From Escherichia coli (lineage in GTDB: Bacteria; Pseudomonadota; Gammaproteobacteria; Enterobacterales; Enterobacteriaceae): a stretch of DNA of 64,000 nucleotides. The stretch lies in NCBI RefSeq assembly GCF_024223415.1, contig NZ_CP100500.1; one strand, written 5' to 3'. The number at the start of each line of letters is the position of its first letter. Position 1 is the stretch's first letter. Below, one piece after another: positions 27,721 through 36,060 of this stretch. Below the pieces are notes generated by a model, which worked only from the letters and a program-made list of their open reading frames with translations, searched no databases and was not told the DNA's origin. The translations under genes and the position numbers were made by a program.

Positions 27721-29304
<1,584 letters not shown>

Positions 29305-29312
29305 CAGAAAAG

Positions 29313-29385
29313 AAAAAGGCCACTCGTGAGTGGCCAAAATTTCATCTCTGAATTCAGGGATGATGATAACAAATGCGCGTCTTTC
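29313..29385 (-). ncRNA. micA: MicA (SraD) small RNA
   Basis: Reverse complement reads gaaagacgcgcatttgttatcatcatccctgaattcagagatgaaattttggccactcacgagtggccttttt, with terminator hairpin ggccactcacgagtggcc plus U-run. Confidence 0.95.
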
Positions 29386-29453
29386 ATATACTCAGACTCG
29401 CCTGGGAAGAAAGAGTTCAGAAAATTTTTAAAAAAATTACCGGAGGTGGCTAA

Positions 29454-29969
29454 ATGCCGTTGTTAGATAGCTTCACAGTCGATCATACCCGGATGGAAGC
29501 GCCTGCAGTTCGGGTGGCGAAAACAATGAACACCCCGCATGGCGACGCAATCACCGTGTTCGATCTGCGCTTCTGCGTGCCGAACAAAGAAGTGATGCCA
29601 GAAAGAGGGATCCATACCCTGGAGCACCTGTTTGCTGGTTTTATGCGTAACCATCTTAACGGTAATGGTGTAGAGATTATCGATATCTCGCCAATGGGCT
29701 GCCGCACCGGTTTTTATATGAGTCTGATTGGTACGCCAGATGAGCAGCGTGTTGCTGATGCCTGGAAAGCGGCAATGGAAGACGTGCTGAAAGTGCAGGA
29801 TCAGAATCAGATCCCGGAACTGAACGTCTACCAGTGTGGCACTTACCAGATGCACTCGTTGCAGGAAGCACAGGATATTGCGCGTAGCATTCTGGAACGT
29901 GACGTGCGCATCAACAGCAACGAAGAACTGGCGCTGCCGAAAGAGAAGTTGCAGGAACTGCACATTTAG
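29454..29969 (+). CDS. luxS: S-ribosylhomocysteine lyase LuxS
   Basis: 171 aa; HTLEH metal-binding motif. Confidence 0.96.
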
Positions 29970-30000
29970 TCAGTAAACTATCTTCACAATTAATTGAAAA

Positions 30001-30024
30001 AAGCCAGTTCAAATGAACTGGCTT
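30001..30024 (-). terminator. intrinsic terminator of emrRAB (possibly bidirectional with luxS)
   Basis: aagccagttc-aaat-gaactggctt, 10-bp perfect stem; on the minus strand it is followed by TTTTTcAATT. Confidence 0.75.
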
Positions 30025-30032
30025 AGTTGTAC

Positions 30033-31571
30033 TTAGTGCGCACCGCCTCCGCCGCCACCTGCGCCAAAGGGCGGTTTAGCAAACCACACCAGCCCCAGCA
30101 AGACGAGGAATATCCCGGCTGACATCCAGAAGATCTCATTTGCGGAAATAATCAGCCCCTGATTGGTGATCTGCTGGGCAATCCAGCCTGATGCCTGCTG
30201 TTGTGTCATCCCAAGCCCTTCCAGTTGACTGTACATCGCCTGGGCATTCGGGTTGAACGGGTTTACCGACTCAGTCAACTGCGCATGGTGCATCGACTCG
30301 CGGTTGGTCCACATGGTCGTGGTTATCGACGTGCCAATAGACCCCGCCAGCGTTCGCGTAAAGTTGGAGAGGCTCGATGCCGCCGCCAGTCGTTCCGGTG
30401 GCAAACCAGACAGCGTAATGGTGGTCAGCGGCATAAAGAAGCAGGCCACCGCAAACCCCTGGATAAACTGCGGCCAGGCCGACGCGCCAAAATCCATACC
30501 CGGTTCAAAGGTATAGGCACGCCAGTAGAAGCAGACGGCATACATAATAAAGCTGAAGGTTACCAGCCGCCGCATATCCAGTTTATGCGCGAAGCGGCCG
30601 ATAATCGGCGACAGGATCACCGGAATAATCCCTACCGGCGCAGAGGCCAGACCTGCCCACGTTGCCGTGTAACCGTAGACCTCCTGCAACAACTGCGGCA
30701 GCAGAACAATAGCGCCGAAGTAGAGCATATACGCGAGGCTGATACACAAGCAGCCGATGGTGAAGTTGCGCGACTTAAACAACGACAGATCGACTATCGG
30801 GTTATCGTCGGTCAGCTCCCAGACAATCAGGAAGCAGATAGCCACCACCGCCACCACGGTAAGGATGATAATTTCCTGTGATGAAAACCAGTCCAGCTCT
30901 TTACCGCGGTCGAGCATAATCTGCAGGCTGCCGATACCAATAACCAGCAGTGCCAGCCCCACGGCATCAATCCGCCGCCGTTCGGTGCGGGTTTCACGTC
31001 CGCGCAGAGTTTGCAGTGTCATCAACACCACCGCCACGCCAATCGGCACGTTGATGAAGAATATCCAGCCCCAGTGGTAATTATCGCTGATATACCCGCC
31101 GAGGATTGGGCCGCAAATTGGCGCGACAATCACCGTCATCGACCACAACGCCAGCGCGATTGAGCGTTTGGCTGGCGGGTAATTATTCAGCAATAGACTT
31201 TGCGAAAGCGGGATCAACGGCCCGGCGACAATCCCCTGAATCACGCGGAAGAAGATCAGCATATTCAGGCTGCTGGAGACACCACACGCCCACGACGCAA
31301 TAGCAAAGGCGATGGTTGACCAGAGGAACAGTTTCACTTCCCCGACGCGCTTTGCCAGCCAGCCGGTAAGCGGGATCGAGATAGCATTCGCCACCCCGAA
31401 AGAAGTGATTACCCACGTTCCCTGGCTGAGCGATGAGCCCAGATTCCCGGCGATAGTGGGGATCGCCACGTTAGCAATGGTGGAGTCCAGCACCTGCATG
31501 AATGTCGCCAGTGACAGCGCAATCGTCATAATGACCAGTTGCGCGCCTTCCAGCGGTTTTTGCTGTTGCAT
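30033..31571 (-). CDS. emrB: multidrug efflux MFS permease EmrB
   Basis: ORF 30033..31580; start at MQQQKPLEGAQL gives 512 aa; 14-TMS-type MFS. Confidence 0.93.
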   Translation of the reverse strand: MQQQKPLEGAQLVIMTIALSLATFMQVLDSTIANVAIPTIAGNLGSSLSQGTWVITSFGVANAISIPLTGWLAKRVGEVKLFLWSTIAFAIASWACGVSSSLNMLIFFRVIQGIVAGPLIPLSQSLLLNNYPPAKRSIALALWSMTVIVAPICGPILGGYISDNYHWGWIFFINVPIGVAVVLMTLQTLRGRETRTERRRIDAVGLALLVIGIGSLQIMLDRGKELDWFSSQEIIILTVVAVVAICFLIVWELTDDNPIVDLSLFKSRNFTIGCLCISLAYMLYFGAIVLLPQLLQEVYGYTATWAGLASAPVGIIPVILSPIIGRFAHKLDMRRLVTFSFIMYAVCFYWRAYTFEPGMDFGASAWPQFIQGFAVACFFMPLTTITLSGLPPERLAAASSLSNFTRTLAGSIGTSITTTMWTNRESMHHAQLTESVNPFNPNAQAMYSQLEGLGMTQQQASGWIAQQITNQGLIISANEIFWMSAGIFLVLLGLVWFAKPPFGAGGGGGGAH

Positions 31572-31587
31572 CACACGCACCTCTGGA

Positions 31588-32760
31588 TTAGCCAGCGTTA
31601 GCTTTTACGATATCGTCGATCAGTTTATTGACAGGTGCCAGGCTGATTTCACGCGCGGTACTTACCGCAACCGGTGTGGAACGTACTTTATTTGCCAGTA
31701 CCTGACCGTCACGGTTAGTGGTATTGACGCTCACCAGCGTGGACAAACCGATACGCAGCGGATATTGCTCCAGCTGTTTCTGGTCCAGTTCGATACGCAC
31801 AGGCAGACGCTGAACGACTTTGATCCAGTTACCGGTCGCATTTTGCGCTGGAAGCAGTGAGAACGCGCTACCTGTGCCCATATCCAGACCAACCACTTTA
31901 CCGGTGTATTTCACATCATCGCCGTAAATATCGGTGGTGATGGTGACCGGCTGACCGATGCGCATATTGGCAATCTGCGTCTCTTTAAAGTTGGCATCCA
32001 CCCACATATTGGTGGCTGGAACGACCGCCATCAGCGGCGTCGTTGGGCTAATTTGCGCCCCAGGCTGTACCGCGCGGCGGGAGACATAACCGGTCATCGG
32101 ACTGACAATACGAGTACGCTCCAGCGCCAGCCAGGCGTTACGTACTTCGGTGGCAGCCTGTTGCACGGCAGGCTGATCTTCCAGTTTAGTCCCCAGAATC
32201 ATCGCCTGATTGGCATTGTATTGTTGAATCGCGACGTCCAGTTGCGCCTGGGCACTGGTAACGGCGTCGCGGGCGTGTTGCAGCTCTTCGCGACCAATCA
32301 GGTTGGCATTGCCCAGCGGCACACGGCGGTTGTAGTCGCTTTGTGCTTTCGCGAGGGCGATTTTTTGCACCTCAATATTCGCCTGCAACTGTTTGCTGTT
32401 AATCATCAGCTGGTGGGTTTGGCGAACGCTGGAAGCCAGTGCAGTTTTGGCTTTTTCAAACGCCTGGCGAGCATCTGTCGGGTCGAGAGTGACCAGCACG
32501 TCGCCTTCTTTTACAAAATCGGTGTTATCGGCCCAGACTTTCGTCACGCTGCCAGACACCTGAGACATAATTTGAATTTGATTCCCTGCCACGTATGCGT
32601 CATCGGTTTCTTCGAAGTGACGCAGTACCAAAAACCAATAAATCCCTATCGCTACGGCAATAATTATAAAGAGCAAGGTGAGAAGGAGGAGCAGACGCTT
32701 ACGTTTGCCGCTCTTCTTTACCGGTTGCTGCGGGGTTTGAGTCTCCGCATTTGCGCTCAT
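31588..32760 (-). CDS. emrA: multidrug efflux periplasmic adaptor EmrA
   Basis: ORF 31588..32772; start at MSANAETQTPQQ gives 390 aa. Confidence 0.93.
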   Translation of the reverse strand: MSANAETQTPQQPVKKSGKRKRLLLLLTLLFIIIAVAIGIYWFLVLRHFEETDDAYVAGNQIQIMSQVSGSVTKVWADNTDFVKEGDVLVTLDPTDARQAFEKAKTALASSVRQTHQLMINSKQLQANIEVQKIALAKAQSDYNRRVPLGNANLIGREELQHARDAVTSAQAQLDVAIQQYNANQAMILGTKLEDQPAVQQAATEVRNAWLALERTRIVSPMTGYVSRRAVQPGAQISPTTPLMAVVPATNMWVDANFKETQIANMRIGQPVTITTDIYGDDVKYTGKVVGLDMGTGSAFSLLPAQNATGNWIKVVQRLPVRIELDQKQLEQYPLRIGLSTLVSVNTTNRDGQVLANKVRSTPVAVSTAREISLAPVNKLIDDIVKANAG

Positions 32761-32815
32761 ATTGTTCTCCACGATCTTCTTAACTCATCGGCTGAGCCGA
32801 CCTGCTTGCCAAAAA

Positions 32816-32854
32816 GGCCAGCATGTTGCGATGCTGGCCAGTCATTTTTTCTTT
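32816..32854. other. stable hairpin between mprA and emrA
   Basis: ggccagcat-gttgcg-atgctggcc (9-bp stem) at 32816-32839; T-run on plus strand 32844-32854, TTTTTgg on minus strand. Confidence 0.55.
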
Positions 32855-32886
32855 TATAAATCTGGATTTTTGAGCGAGATGACGCG

Positions 32887-33417
32887 TTAGCTCATCGCTT
32901 CGAGAACCACACCGTCTTGTTCCATCTGGTCGAGACGGGAGAGCAATTTGCGGGTGATTTGCTCGAGCTGATCTTTTTCTGTTGTGCTGAGCGCGGACCA
33001 GAGTTGATGCAGGCAGTTATGCTGCGGTGGTAAAACCTCGCGCAAAAACTCGTGACCTTTTTCCGTTAATTGCAGATGCAGGCAGCGGCGATCGTTATCG
33101 CTTTCACGACGTTCGATCCAACCGCGTTTTTCCAGTTCATCGGCAATACGCGTCGCGTTGGTACGGGATGATCCAAGAGCACAACTTAATTCAGAAGGCT
33201 GAATACTGTGGTTTTCCTGAGACTCCAGCGTAATCAACGCCATAAACAACGTCTCGTTAATCCCCTGAGCCTTCAGCATTTTATTGCGGTTCTCCAGCAG
33301 CTTGCTTTGCATGTGCATGCAAAGACGAGTCAGAAGGATCTCCTGATAAGGAAAATCTTCGTGGCGGCTGGCGCGAAATTTTAGCATTTGTTCAATGGGC
33401 GTAAACGAACTATCCAT
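32887..33417 (-). CDS. mprA: MarR-family repressor MprA (EmrR)
   Basis: 176 aa; recognised as MprA/EmrR. Confidence 0.93.
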
Positions 33418-33507
33418 TTGGGTATGACCTCATTAATTTCAGCCGATATAGTAACGACAGTGACAAATAAAGTAAATGTATTGTTTTAGAAAAATGATTC
33501 TTGTGGG

Positions 33508-33843
33508 TTATATAATCGCCATCACTTTCCAGGCGAGCCCATAGGCCAGCGCACTAAGCAGTGTTGGGATGATAATGCTGCGTGTTTTATAGAAACTGGC
33601 ACCCAGTACCGCGAAGCCGACCAGCGTGGGCACGAAACGGCGTGTATCGTGCATCACTTCTGGTGCGGTAGAGACAACCAGCAGAGCGCATATCGAGGCG
33701 ATGCCAATGGTGTCGAGCAAAATACCTACCGCGCCACGTTTGGTTGGGCGGGCATTACCCACACGCAGGCGCAGCGGCAAATAGCGGAAGCAATAATTCG
33801 CTGCGCCAACCAGTAACCCAAGCAGCAGAACCTCATAGCTCAT
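33508..33843 (-). CDS. ygaH: branched-chain amino acid (L-valine) exporter small subunit YgaH
   Basis: 111 aa AzlD-like membrane protein. Confidence 0.88.
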
Positions 33844-34570
33844 CGGGCGCTCCTTGCCAGAATGCCTGGATTAACGCAGTGAGGCAGCCACAGACAATGC
33901 CTGCCAGAATGGCGACGGGAATAGAAAATAGCGTTACGCCTGCAAGGGCACCAACTAACGCTGCGGTAACGCAAAGAGATTGTTTGCGCTGGAAAGAGGC
34001 GAGCAGGAAACTCATAAAGAGTGCCGGAAGCATAAAACCTAATGCTGCTTCAACGGCGGGATAACCTTGCAGCAAGCCGCTGCCGGAGAATGCCCCTATT
34101 ACCGTACCAAATACCCACGATGACCATGAACTGAAGGCAATGCCGATCATCCAGTTCTCGCTCCAGCGGCGATTATTGCGTACCAGTTTTGCGGTGGCGG
34201 CGGCAAAAACCTCATCCGTCAGGCCAAACGCCCATAGGGCTGTTTTCGATTTTTGCAGACGCTGAATAATACGGCTACGCAGTGACGGGCCATACAAAAC
34301 ATGGCGAACATCCATTGCCATGACGGTCAGTGCAGCAACCCACAAACTACTCCCTGCTGCCAGCATCGCGGTAATGACGAACTGGCTCGCGCCTGCATAA
34401 ATGATGCAGGAGAAAAAAACGCTTTCGAGAGGAGAGAATCCCAGACGGGTCGCATTCAGACCGAACGCAAAGGCCACCGGAATATAACTAATAACAATCG
34501 GTAAACTGTCTTTGCATCCTTCCATGAAGGTCGCCGAACCAGGAGCAGGCTGTGGAGTAGGGCTTTCCAT
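33833..34570 (-). CDS. ygaZ: branched-chain amino acid exporter large subunit YgaZ (AzlC family)
   Basis: 245 aa; 11-nt overlap with ygaH. Confidence 0.88.
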
Positions 34571-34693
34571 AGAGTGTACGCTTAACGATTGTTAATATTA
34601 TAAATAGACTGAATGAATATCTTAACCTTATCAGACTGATGGGCTTCTTAACACCCTTATAAGTGTAAAGCCACGAAAACGGTTGCTGATTGC

Positions 34694-35878
34694 TTAATTT
34701 GCGGCTTCCTGACGATGAAAACCTCGCCACCAGACCAGTAAGTTAACCAGGGCAATCGTCGCGCCAGCCAGACAAACGCCAGCCCAACCGCCATGTTGCC
34801 AGGCTGAGGCTGAAATTAGCGAACCGGCGGCACCGCCAATAAAGTAGCTGGTCATGTAACCTGCGGTCAGGCGATTACGCGCATCAGGATGTATTCGATA
34901 AATTACCGTCTGGTTAGTGATATGCACGCCCTGCACGGTGAGGTCCAGCACCAGGATGCCGATAATCAGTGCCAGTACGGAAGTGTGTCCAAACCAGATT
35001 GCCAGCCATGAAAGTAACAGCAGCAGCAGACCGAAAGTTGTGGTGTGGTGCGATTTGCCCTTGTCGGCAAAACCGCCCGCCGGACGAGCGCTCAACGCTC
35101 CGGCAGCTCCCGCAAGCCCAAACAGACCAATGACACCATCGCTGTAGTTAAAAGGTGGAGCGGCAAGCAAAAAGGCCATTGAGGTCCAGAGAATGCTGAA
35201 GTTGGCAAAGGTCAGGCAGCCCAGCAACGCGCGGGTGCGCAGGATCTTATTGCTGATAAACATACTGAAAACGGAACCCAACAACTGTGGGTAATTGAGG
35301 TGGGTTTCTGATTTCATTTGTGGCAGACCACGCCATAATGCCAGCGCCATCAGTGCCATTAACACCGAGGCAACCCAAAAGACGGTGCGCCAGCCGCCGA
35401 GGTTTGCCAGTAACCCGGCAACGGTTCGTGCCAGCAAGATCCCCAACAGCAGACCGCTCATAATGGTGCCAACCACTTTGCCGCGTTTGTCCGGTGAAGC
35501 CAGCGTCGCTGCCAGTGGAACCAGAATTTGTGCCACGACTGAGAATAAACCGGTTAATGCCGTACCGAGGATCATCATCGCCAGCGACTGACTGCTGGCG
35601 GTAATCAACATGCCGCATGCCGCCAGTAAGGTCATCGAGACAATCAGGCGGCGGCGTTCAAACATATCACCGAGGGGAACAAGAAACAGTAGACCTGCGG
35701 CATAGCCCAACTGCGCGGCGGTAACAATAAAGCCTGCCGAACTGGCGGAAAGGGAAAAGTTACGCGCGATGGTGTCGAGCAATGGCTGGGCGTAATAGTT
35801 ACTGGCTACCGCCAGACCGGTGGCGATAGACATCAGCACGATCAGCGCCGGGCTAAGCTCATGATTAGGTTTAGTCAT
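34694..35878 (-). CDS. ygaY: MFS transporter YgaY, uninterrupted here
   Basis: 394 aa continuous ORF with about 12 hydrophobic segments. Confidence 0.8.
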   Translation of the reverse strand: MTKPNHELSPALIVLMSIATGLAVASNYYAQPLLDTIARNFSLSASSAGFIVTAAQLGYAAGLLFLVPLGDMFERRRLIVSMTLLAACGMLITASSQSLAMMILGTALTGLFSVVAQILVPLAATLASPDKRGKVVGTIMSGLLLGILLARTVAGLLANLGGWRTVFWVASVLMALMALALWRGLPQMKSETHLNYPQLLGSVFSMFISNKILRTRALLGCLTFANFSILWTSMAFLLAAPPFNYSDGVIGLFGLAGAAGALSARPAGGFADKGKSHHTTTFGLLLLLLSWLAIWFGHTSVLALIIGILVLDLTVQGVHITNQTVIYRIHPDARNRLTAGYMTSYFIGGAAGSLISASAWQHGGWAGVCLAGATIALVNLLVWWRGFHRQEAAN

Positions 35879-35978
35879 TATTTTTGTTCATCAGGTGATG
35901 ATTAAGCTGGAAATCAATAATAGCGGATGTTGATGAATATGGGATGAAAGATAGATTGTTGAAATGTGCGGTGTGGTT

Positions 35979-36060
<82 letters not shown>

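Follow-up and report, generated by a model that had tools for sequence, protein, structure and literature searches.

What is a strong, G+C-rich hairpin doing between the repressor gene and the pump genes of a multidrug efflux operon? The window analysed here, a 64,000-nt stretch of E. coli DNA, carries the emr genes on its minus strand, in the E. coli order gshA–MicA–luxS–emrB–emrA–mprA–ygaH–ygaZ. Read along the minus strand, the open reading frames follow as ygaZ, ygaH, mprA (emrR; 33417-32887), emrA (AUG at 32760-32758) and emrB; beyond emrB lie luxS on the plus strand and the MicA sRNA on the minus strand. The locus is almost uniform within the species: of 5,426 complete E. coli genomes, 5,409 match the 261 bases round the hairpin at 95% identity or more, with the flanking genes annotated as emrR and emrA. 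The spacer is framed by the following features.

32887-33417, minus strand: mprA (emrR) coding sequence, 176 aa, MarR-family repressor of the operon; identified from the open reading frame, RefSeq emrR in identical E. coli DNA and homologues named MprA/EmrR.
32840-32886, minus strand: mprA 3' untranslated stretch, A/U-rich (…AAAAAUCCAGAUUUAUAAAAGAAAAAAUGACU) and unstructured; from sequence and fold.
31588-32760, minus strand: emrA coding sequence, 390 aa, membrane-fusion subunit of the EmrAB-TolC pump; open reading frame with MSANAE… from an internal ATG, and RefSeq annotation.
32767-32770, minus strand: emrA Shine-Dalgarno sequence GGAG, within the near-invariant block GAUCGUGGAGAA (majority fraction of the block 0.995).

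The emrA AUG is the fifth codon of the mechanically called GTG open reading frame. The untranslated stretch past mprA is mostly unpaired in the fold, where it forms weak short-range and long-range pairs without alignment support, and contains a short island of conservation, UCCAGAUU. On the coding strand, an 11-nt direct repeat, identical at 10 of 11 positions, links the end of mprA (CGATGAGCTAA, 32887-32897) with the sequence just past a second, smaller hairpin (CGATGAGTTAA, 32780-32790) and may be due to chance. Further along the window, a search of 29000-36000 against Rfam (E <= 10) returned nothing at the hairpin, and MicA (RF00078, 83.9 bits, 29314-29385, minus strand, upstream of luxS) was the sole family above its gathering score. 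Between the convergent emrB and luxS genes, at 30001-30024, lies a 10-bp hairpin, flanked by a T-run on each side and likely to be a bidirectional operon-end terminator.

Two features make up the element between mprA and emrA.

32816-32839, minus strand: terminator hairpin with a 9-bp stem, GGCCAGCAU/AUGCUGGCC, and a 6-nt loop, CGCAAC; from sequence, fold, alignment and PMC12704781.
32811-32815, minus strand: U-tract UUUUU, followed by GG and abutting the stem; the expected site of RNA release; from sequence.

On the coding strand the RNA reads AAAAGAAAAAAUGACU-GGCCAGCAU-CGCAAC-AUGCUGGCC-UUUUUGGCAAG, the stem arms at 32839-32831 and 32824-32816 pairing perfectly over 9 bp. On the plus strand the same DNA is an inverted repeat, GGCCAGCAT (32816-32824), a 6-nt loop (32825-32830) and ATGCTGGCC (32831-32839), which is likewise perfect over 9 bp and has six G-C pairs. 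For the 24-nt hairpin the folding energy is -15.5 kcal/mol (z = -4.6), a value reached by none of 200 shuffled sequences. Thus, the initial annotation was right to describe a strong, perfect, GC-rich stem of 9 bp between the two genes and a short U-run after it on the coding strand, where the five U's at 32815-32811 abut the stem. Its spacings need amendment: the stem had been placed 30 bp past the mprA stop, and the distance from the stop (TAA, 32889-32887) to the first stem base is 47 nt, 32 nt being the gap to the edge of the interval originally flagged (32854). The distance from the hairpin to the emrA start, given as 56 bp, comes to 55 nt when counted to the AUG.

The hairpin was the top terminator-like site on either strand in a consensus scan of 29000-36000, and neither the sequence nor the scan revealed a further terminator-like hairpin between the mprA stop and the emrA start. 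By the measure of dinucleotide shuffles, 64 kb should contain 0.54 perfect stems with 9 bp or more, a loop of 3-8 nt and six or more G-C pairs; the window holds nine distinct perfect stems of the at-least-9-bp class, six of them G+C-rich, and several are followed by a T-rich tail and are terminator-like. The pattern GGCCAGCA-N3-10-TGCTGGCC matched once in the window and in none of 100 shuffles. A rough score of the d'Aubenton-Carafa type was about +12 for the E. coli hairpin, a terminator-like value that is indicative only, as it was computed with modern folding energies. The element therefore combines what is looked for in an intrinsic terminator: a stable G+C-rich stem-loop, a U-tract immediately 3' of the stem, and a position downstream of mprA on the mprA strand.

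Published transcript data bear directly on this identification. In a 2025 PNAS study of the UhpU sRNA (PMC12704781), the main mprA RNA detected by northern blotting was about 900 nt long, in keeping with a predicted 888-nt ygaH'-mprA RNA and not with the 3.5-kb mprA-emrAB transcript; 5' RACE placed its start inside ygaH at codon 49, and a Term-seq signal was seen between mprA and emrA, where a canonical Rho-independent terminator is described. The reported start can be located in the window.

33697-33699, minus strand: ygaH codon 49, the reported alternative start of the 888-nt ygaH'-mprA RNA; the text of PMC12704781 mapped onto the ygaH open reading frame, 33508-33843.

Counting 888 nt down from this codon (33699-33697) brings the 3' end to 32812-32810, at the last U's of the run 32815-32811. 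Because the count ends at the U-tract, and because the spacer holds no other terminator-like hairpin, the published mprA-emrA terminator is the hairpin at 32816-32839. The suggestion in the initial annotation that the hairpin could attenuate the transcription of emrAB, or shield the 3' end of mprA, agrees with both the Term-seq and the northern data. The supplementary tables of two further Term-seq papers (PMC7815308 and PMC12207403) contain no mprA or emrA entry. We judge it very probable, at roughly 85%, that the hairpin and its U-run act on the coding strand as a Rho-independent terminator. This element is already in print and of ordinary design, so its confirmation adds little as discovery; the literature supplies the 3' end at the U-tract site and the short main isoform, and the present analysis its anatomy, the coordinate match and its conservation.

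How, then, is the pump expressed? Two sets of expression data speak to this. Deletion of emrR in Salmonella raises emrA 5.7-fold and emrB 5.9-fold (PMC6469979), and nine evolved E. coli strains classed as mprA mutants in the PMC7686311 supplement show emrA raised by log2 2.9-4.4. The only MprA operator described, as cited in PMC6469979, lies at the promoter upstream of mprA. In our consensus scan the minus strand showed no promoter-like site in the interval from the hairpin to emrA. Since emrAB rises upon loss of MprA and no promoter was found downstream of the hairpin, termination at the hairpin is probably partial, and we infer that emrAB expression depends on read-through. Two candidates for separate control within the spacer were considered and rejected. 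An emrA promoter at or after the hairpin is suggested to the eye by TTGGCA (32812-32807), which resembles a -35 element and has no acceptable -10 element at 16-18 nt; an MprA operator in the spacer was discarded for want of similarity to the mprA promoter region.

On this basis the following sequence of events may be proposed. RNA polymerase arriving from the mprA promoters would transcribe the G+C-rich stem, which would fold at a time when the active site still contains the weak rU:dA hybrid of the U5 tract. The greater part of the polymerases would then release their RNA at about 32812-32810, giving short, hairpin-capped mprA messages, chiefly the 888-nt ygaH'-mprA RNA, and a minority would read through to produce the mprA-emrAB mRNA. 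The hairpin would in this way act as a fixed, leaky valve: repressor mRNA would outnumber pump mRNA, and emrAB would still be driven from the promoter that MprA controls. Hence, it would determine how much pump mRNA accompanies each repressor mRNA in a multidrug efflux operon of clinical relevance, and would account for a short main mprA transcript in what is annotated as a single mprA-emrAB operon. One observation sits uneasily with a valve of constant setting. In the same nine strains mprA itself rises by only log2 1.6-2.7, less than emrA, and a constant read-through fraction does not by itself explain this difference. Instability of the mutant mprA mRNA, the second, unregulated start in ygaH or modulated read-through could each account for it.

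To place the element in an evolutionary setting, one genome per species was scanned, giving 80 loci with EmrR at 90-99% identity, from which 76 mprA-emrA spacers were extracted and 72 distinct sequences aligned. The fraction of the 72 sequences carrying the majority base was as follows.

Four-fold degenerate sites of mprA, taken as a neutral proxy: 0.66.
32886-32844, minus strand, the first 43 nt past the mprA stop: mean 0.72.
Hairpin 1, 5' arm: 0.92.
Hairpin 1, loop: 0.54.
Hairpin 1, 3' arm: 0.97.
Tail after hairpin 1: 0.92.

Among these 72 Enterobacteriaceae sequences the terminator arms and tail, together with the second hairpin, are far more conserved than silent mprA sites. The stem core, GGCCAGCA/UGCUGGCC, is near-invariant across Escherichia, Salmonella, Citrobacter, Enterobacter, Klebsiella, Raoultella, Leclercia and Kosakonia, whereas the loop varies freely in both sequence and length while the arms are kept. 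Over the 72 sequences, 94.8% of alignment cells in hairpin 1 are paired and three of its pairs have changed on both sides; for the two hairpins together the figure is 96.3%, as against 13-47% with the partner shifted out of register by 1-3 columns, and both-sided changes occur in five of 16 pairs, for example GGCCUGCA/UGCAGGCC in one Enterobacter. RNAalifold recovers the helix of hairpin 1 de novo from the same sequences. Strong covariation was looked for and set aside as an argument, the stems being near-invariant among the 72 Enterobacteriaceae sequences. What speaks for the stems is chiefly the difference in conservation between their arms and the loop, along with a small number of double changes and the diverged hairpins of Shimwellia and Pantoea. 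In these more distant relatives a hairpin still stands in this position: a diverged one, GGCCAGCG/CGCUGGCC, followed by UUUCUGA, occupies the same place in Shimwellia, as does a diverged stem followed by UUUUU in Pantoea. Within E. coli the element was found in 5,411 of 5,426 complete genomes.

Several loci depart from the common arrangement. In Erwinia psidii (L083) a long terminator with the same GCCAGCG core lies past mprA, and the next gene is a convergent methyltransferase gene rather than emrA. In Serratia (L081) a gene for an outer-membrane efflux protein starts 21 nt past mprA, and the hairpin is absent. In one Enterobacteriaceae genome (L019) the 3' untranslated region of mprA is longer by an insertion of about 60 nt, which lies upstream of a hairpin that is itself intact.

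The tail of the hairpin differs between lineages. The sequence UUUUUGG (alignment columns 90-97; window 32809-32815, minus strand) is confined to Escherichia and a few Kosakonia-type genomes; UUUCUGA(C/U)A is the tail in 57 of 74 scored spacers, and UUUCUGA, which is equally invariant, is that of most other genera. Outside Escherichia the d'Aubenton-Carafa-type score is near 0 and ranges from -10 to +19, figures that are again rough and, being based on modern energies, indicative. From sequence alone, the hairpin may be a weaker terminator outside Escherichia, or may be conserved there for another reason. Were it a weaker terminator there, the strong conservation of the hairpin would not be fully explained by termination alone.

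Such conservation extends beyond the terminator to a second structure in the emrA leader.

32787-32801, minus strand: second small hairpin, GUCGGC-UCA-GCCGAU, of 6 bp including one G·U pair, with a 3-nt loop; from fold and alignment.

This hairpin lies 14 nt past the terminator and 26 nt before the emrA AUG, and folds at -7.0 kcal/mol (z = -3.8). Its arms are conserved at 0.97-0.98 in the 72 sequences, matching the terminator stem in this respect, with 98.8% of cells paired and two pairs changed on both sides. Shimwellia has a different stem in its place, CCAGU-CUC-ACUGG. The sequence from the second hairpin to the emrA start codon, including GAUCGUGGAGAA with the ribosome-binding site, is near-invariant at 0.995. 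The second hairpin has no Rfam match at E <= 10; it may stabilise the 5' end of an emrAB mRNA made by processing, act as a pause signal or belong to a regulated leader.

It is tempting to speculate that read-through is itself regulated, the first hairpin acting as a conditional attenuator under the influence of a factor, an sRNA or translation through the stem, with both hairpins and the Shine-Dalgarno block forming one sensing unit. The 80 nt from hairpin 1 to the emrA AUG, conserved at 0.87-0.99 as against 0.66 at silent sites, invite this explanation, as does the presence of a second conserved hairpin to which no role has been assigned. The rise of emrA above mprA in the mprA mutants of the PMC7686311 supplement points the same way, as do six mutations in the mprA-emrA spacer selected by CCCP, according to a bioRxiv preprint (10.1101/392977), and a 21-codon open reading frame (32845-32780) that spans both hairpins. 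Against this, the 72 sequences contain no conserved antiterminator pairing or other competing structure and no conserved leader open reading frame: RNAalifold returns the two hairpins and two 3-bp long-range helices that lack covariation. The region likewise has no Rfam match at E <= 10, and the mprA stop, 47 nt upstream, is too far away for a terminating ribosome to melt the stem. Some E. coli have AUA in place of the AUG of the 21-codon frame; other Escherichia, and other genera, have CUG. As a leader peptide this frame, MTGQHRNMLAFLASRSAQPMS (32780-32845, minus strand), which starts 3 nt before the stem, was accordingly rejected; its start codon is not conserved and it is probably no gene. 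On balance, we consider a conditional attenuator unlikely. It is similarly improbable that the 80 nt from the terminator to the emrA start form a conserved regulatory leader in which read-through or the stability of its product is modulated, or that the capped mprA 3' end is a small RNA. The conservation of the leader, the second hairpin and the recurrent natural and laboratory mutations are compatible with a regulatory leader and no proof of one; were that reading true, it would give the EmrAB pump a second, post-initiation layer of control.

An explanation that dispenses with termination altogether is that the hairpin serves RNA stability or processing, the 3' ends at the U-run arising when a 3'-to-5' exonuclease trims cleaved operon mRNA back to the stem. 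Term-seq by itself does not separate termination from such trimming, and the published Term-seq signal and northern blots fit either route. The phylogenetic pattern can also be read in this light, the stem being almost invariant though the tail is only UUUCUGA in most genera, as if the stem mattered more than the U-run. The geometry in E. coli nevertheless favours termination: the U5 tract abuts the stem, as in canonical terminators, and the 888-nt length puts the 3' end 4-6 nt past the stem base, in or just after the U-tract, as is typical of termination. The authors of PMC12704781, too, read the site as a terminator. We therefore regard trimming as the source of these ends as decidedly unlikely.

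The palindrome folds on both strands, with an A-rich stretch upstream and a U-run downstream, and this raises the question of whether it is bidirectional and, as the initial annotation had suggested, might stop antisense transcription as well, here on the plus strand and heading out of emrA in the direction of mprA. The relevant feature is the complement of the A-rich stretch.

32845-32855, plus strand: T-run TTTTTTCTTTT, the complement of the A-rich stretch upstream of the terminator; from sequence.

The long plus-strand T-run noted at the outset is real, but it does not adjoin the stem, from which it is separated by AGTCA and hence offset by 5 nt; the U-tract abuts the stem on the minus strand only. 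The consensus scan did list a plus-strand site, though only because the scan tolerates an offset tail, and folding the region on the plus strand gives no significant structure (z = -1.5). The neighbouring genes are all on the minus strand, no plus-strand gene or promoter-like site reads into the hairpin, and the papers searched contain no report of an antisense transcript. With its T-run 5 nt off the stem and no gene or promoter-like site reading in, a function in stopping antisense transcription is very improbable. Least credible of all is a DNA-level element, either a palindromic protein-binding site or a dispersed repeat of the REP/BIME type, to which the perfect palindrome and the conservation of sequence as well as pairing might point, since the element is single-copy in the window and occurs a median of once in each E. 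coli genome (range 1-2) rather than in many related copies, lacks resemblance to the mprA promoter/operator region, and keeps its arms while the loop is free in both length and sequence, which is the mark of an RNA stem.

We return, then, to the Rho-independent terminator as the preferred reading, and to what natural and selected variation at the site would do to it. Mutations that weaken or bypass the hairpin should raise EmrAB without touching the repressor, whether they are changes in the stem, insertions of IS elements or frameshifts that bring ribosomes through the stem; as a result, resistance surveys scoring only the mprA coding sequence could miss them.

Variants affecting the site occur among sequenced isolates. 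In the E. coli blood isolate AF57 (L086), a copy of IS4 interrupts the terminator stem and so parts mprA from emrAB (L086 2560-2680 and 4010-4145); its target duplication of 12 bp, CGCAACATGCTG, corresponds to window 32819-32830. In the urinary E. coli isolate M45 (L090 1570-1680 and 2400-2485), IS1 lies directly past the U-tract in the orientation of emrA, with the duplication CCTTTTTGG at about window 32809-32817. These are two independent IS insertions at one spot, both in clinical isolates. In STK78-E (L085 396-575) a 90-bp tandem duplication (window 32776-32865) doubles both hairpins, placing two serial terminators before emrA. E. coli MprA proteins of 212-219 aa (P0001, P0005, P0006 and P0038) represent frameshift or stop-loss alleles whose frame stays open across the hairpin; those of 212-214 aa stop at UAA 32782-32780, about 20 nt before the emrA AUG, and the 219-aa allele stops at a UGA overlapping that AUG. 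Ribosomes crossing the stem in these long alleles might suppress termination.

Laboratory selection has reached the same interval, the CCCP evolution experiment yielding six selected mutations in the mprA-emrA intergenic region, as reported in bioRxiv 10.1101/392977; other evolution and TraDIS papers list only mutations in the mprA coding sequence or upstream of it and do not mention the hairpin. The IS4 and IS1 insertions, the duplication, the long MprA alleles and the CCCP mutations would all be expected to change read-through into emrAB. New leads thus emerge from the conservation of the leader, the second hairpin, the lineage-specific U-tract and the recurring mutations and insertions at the site, of which the conservation pattern and the second hairpin are modest ones.

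Set beside known systems, the element is first of all the terminator of PMC12704781, with which it shares the position between mprA and emrA, the GC-rich stem-loop, the poly-U tail, the Term-seq signal and the end of the 888-nt ygaH'-mprA RNA. In that study the terminator served only to define the transcript; its conservation, the second hairpin and the natural variants are added here. The A/U-rich single-stranded stretch, terminator hairpin and U-tail also recall the 3'UTR-derived, Hfq-binding sRNA modules of the CpxQ, SdhX and UhpU type. In contrast to these, no short stable RNA, Hfq binding or target has been reported for the mprA 3' end, and its U5 tract is short for Hfq. The literature search gave no support for a small RNA from the mprA 3'UTR, the only match for mprA and RIL-seq being the pairing of UhpU with the mprA 5' end; by analogy, an Hfq-binding module at the mprA 3' end is only a possibility.

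Canonical intrinsic terminators of E. coli, as defined by the d'Aubenton-Carafa criteria of 1990, consist of a stem-loop and a U-tract. The mprA-emrA hairpin resembles them in its 9-bp G+C-rich stem, its 6-nt loop, the adjacent U5, the A-rich stretch on its 5' side and its position shortly past a stop codon. It differs in that its U-tract is short, five U's followed by GG, and in that it lies inside an operon and not at its end, the operon-end terminator proper being the 10-bp hairpin between emrB and luxS. Since it lies within the operon, the mprA-emrA terminator must be leaky. Partial terminators inside operons are known to set unequal expression, as with the intercistronic attenuator of rplL-rpoB and the terminator between rpsU-dnaG and rpoD. 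The efficiency of these two has been measured, whereas partial efficiency at mprA-emrA is deduced from emrAB regulation only. Like them, the mprA-emrA hairpin is placed between the cistrons of one transcription unit, such that the upstream gene would be expressed above the downstream genes, which would need read-through to be expressed.
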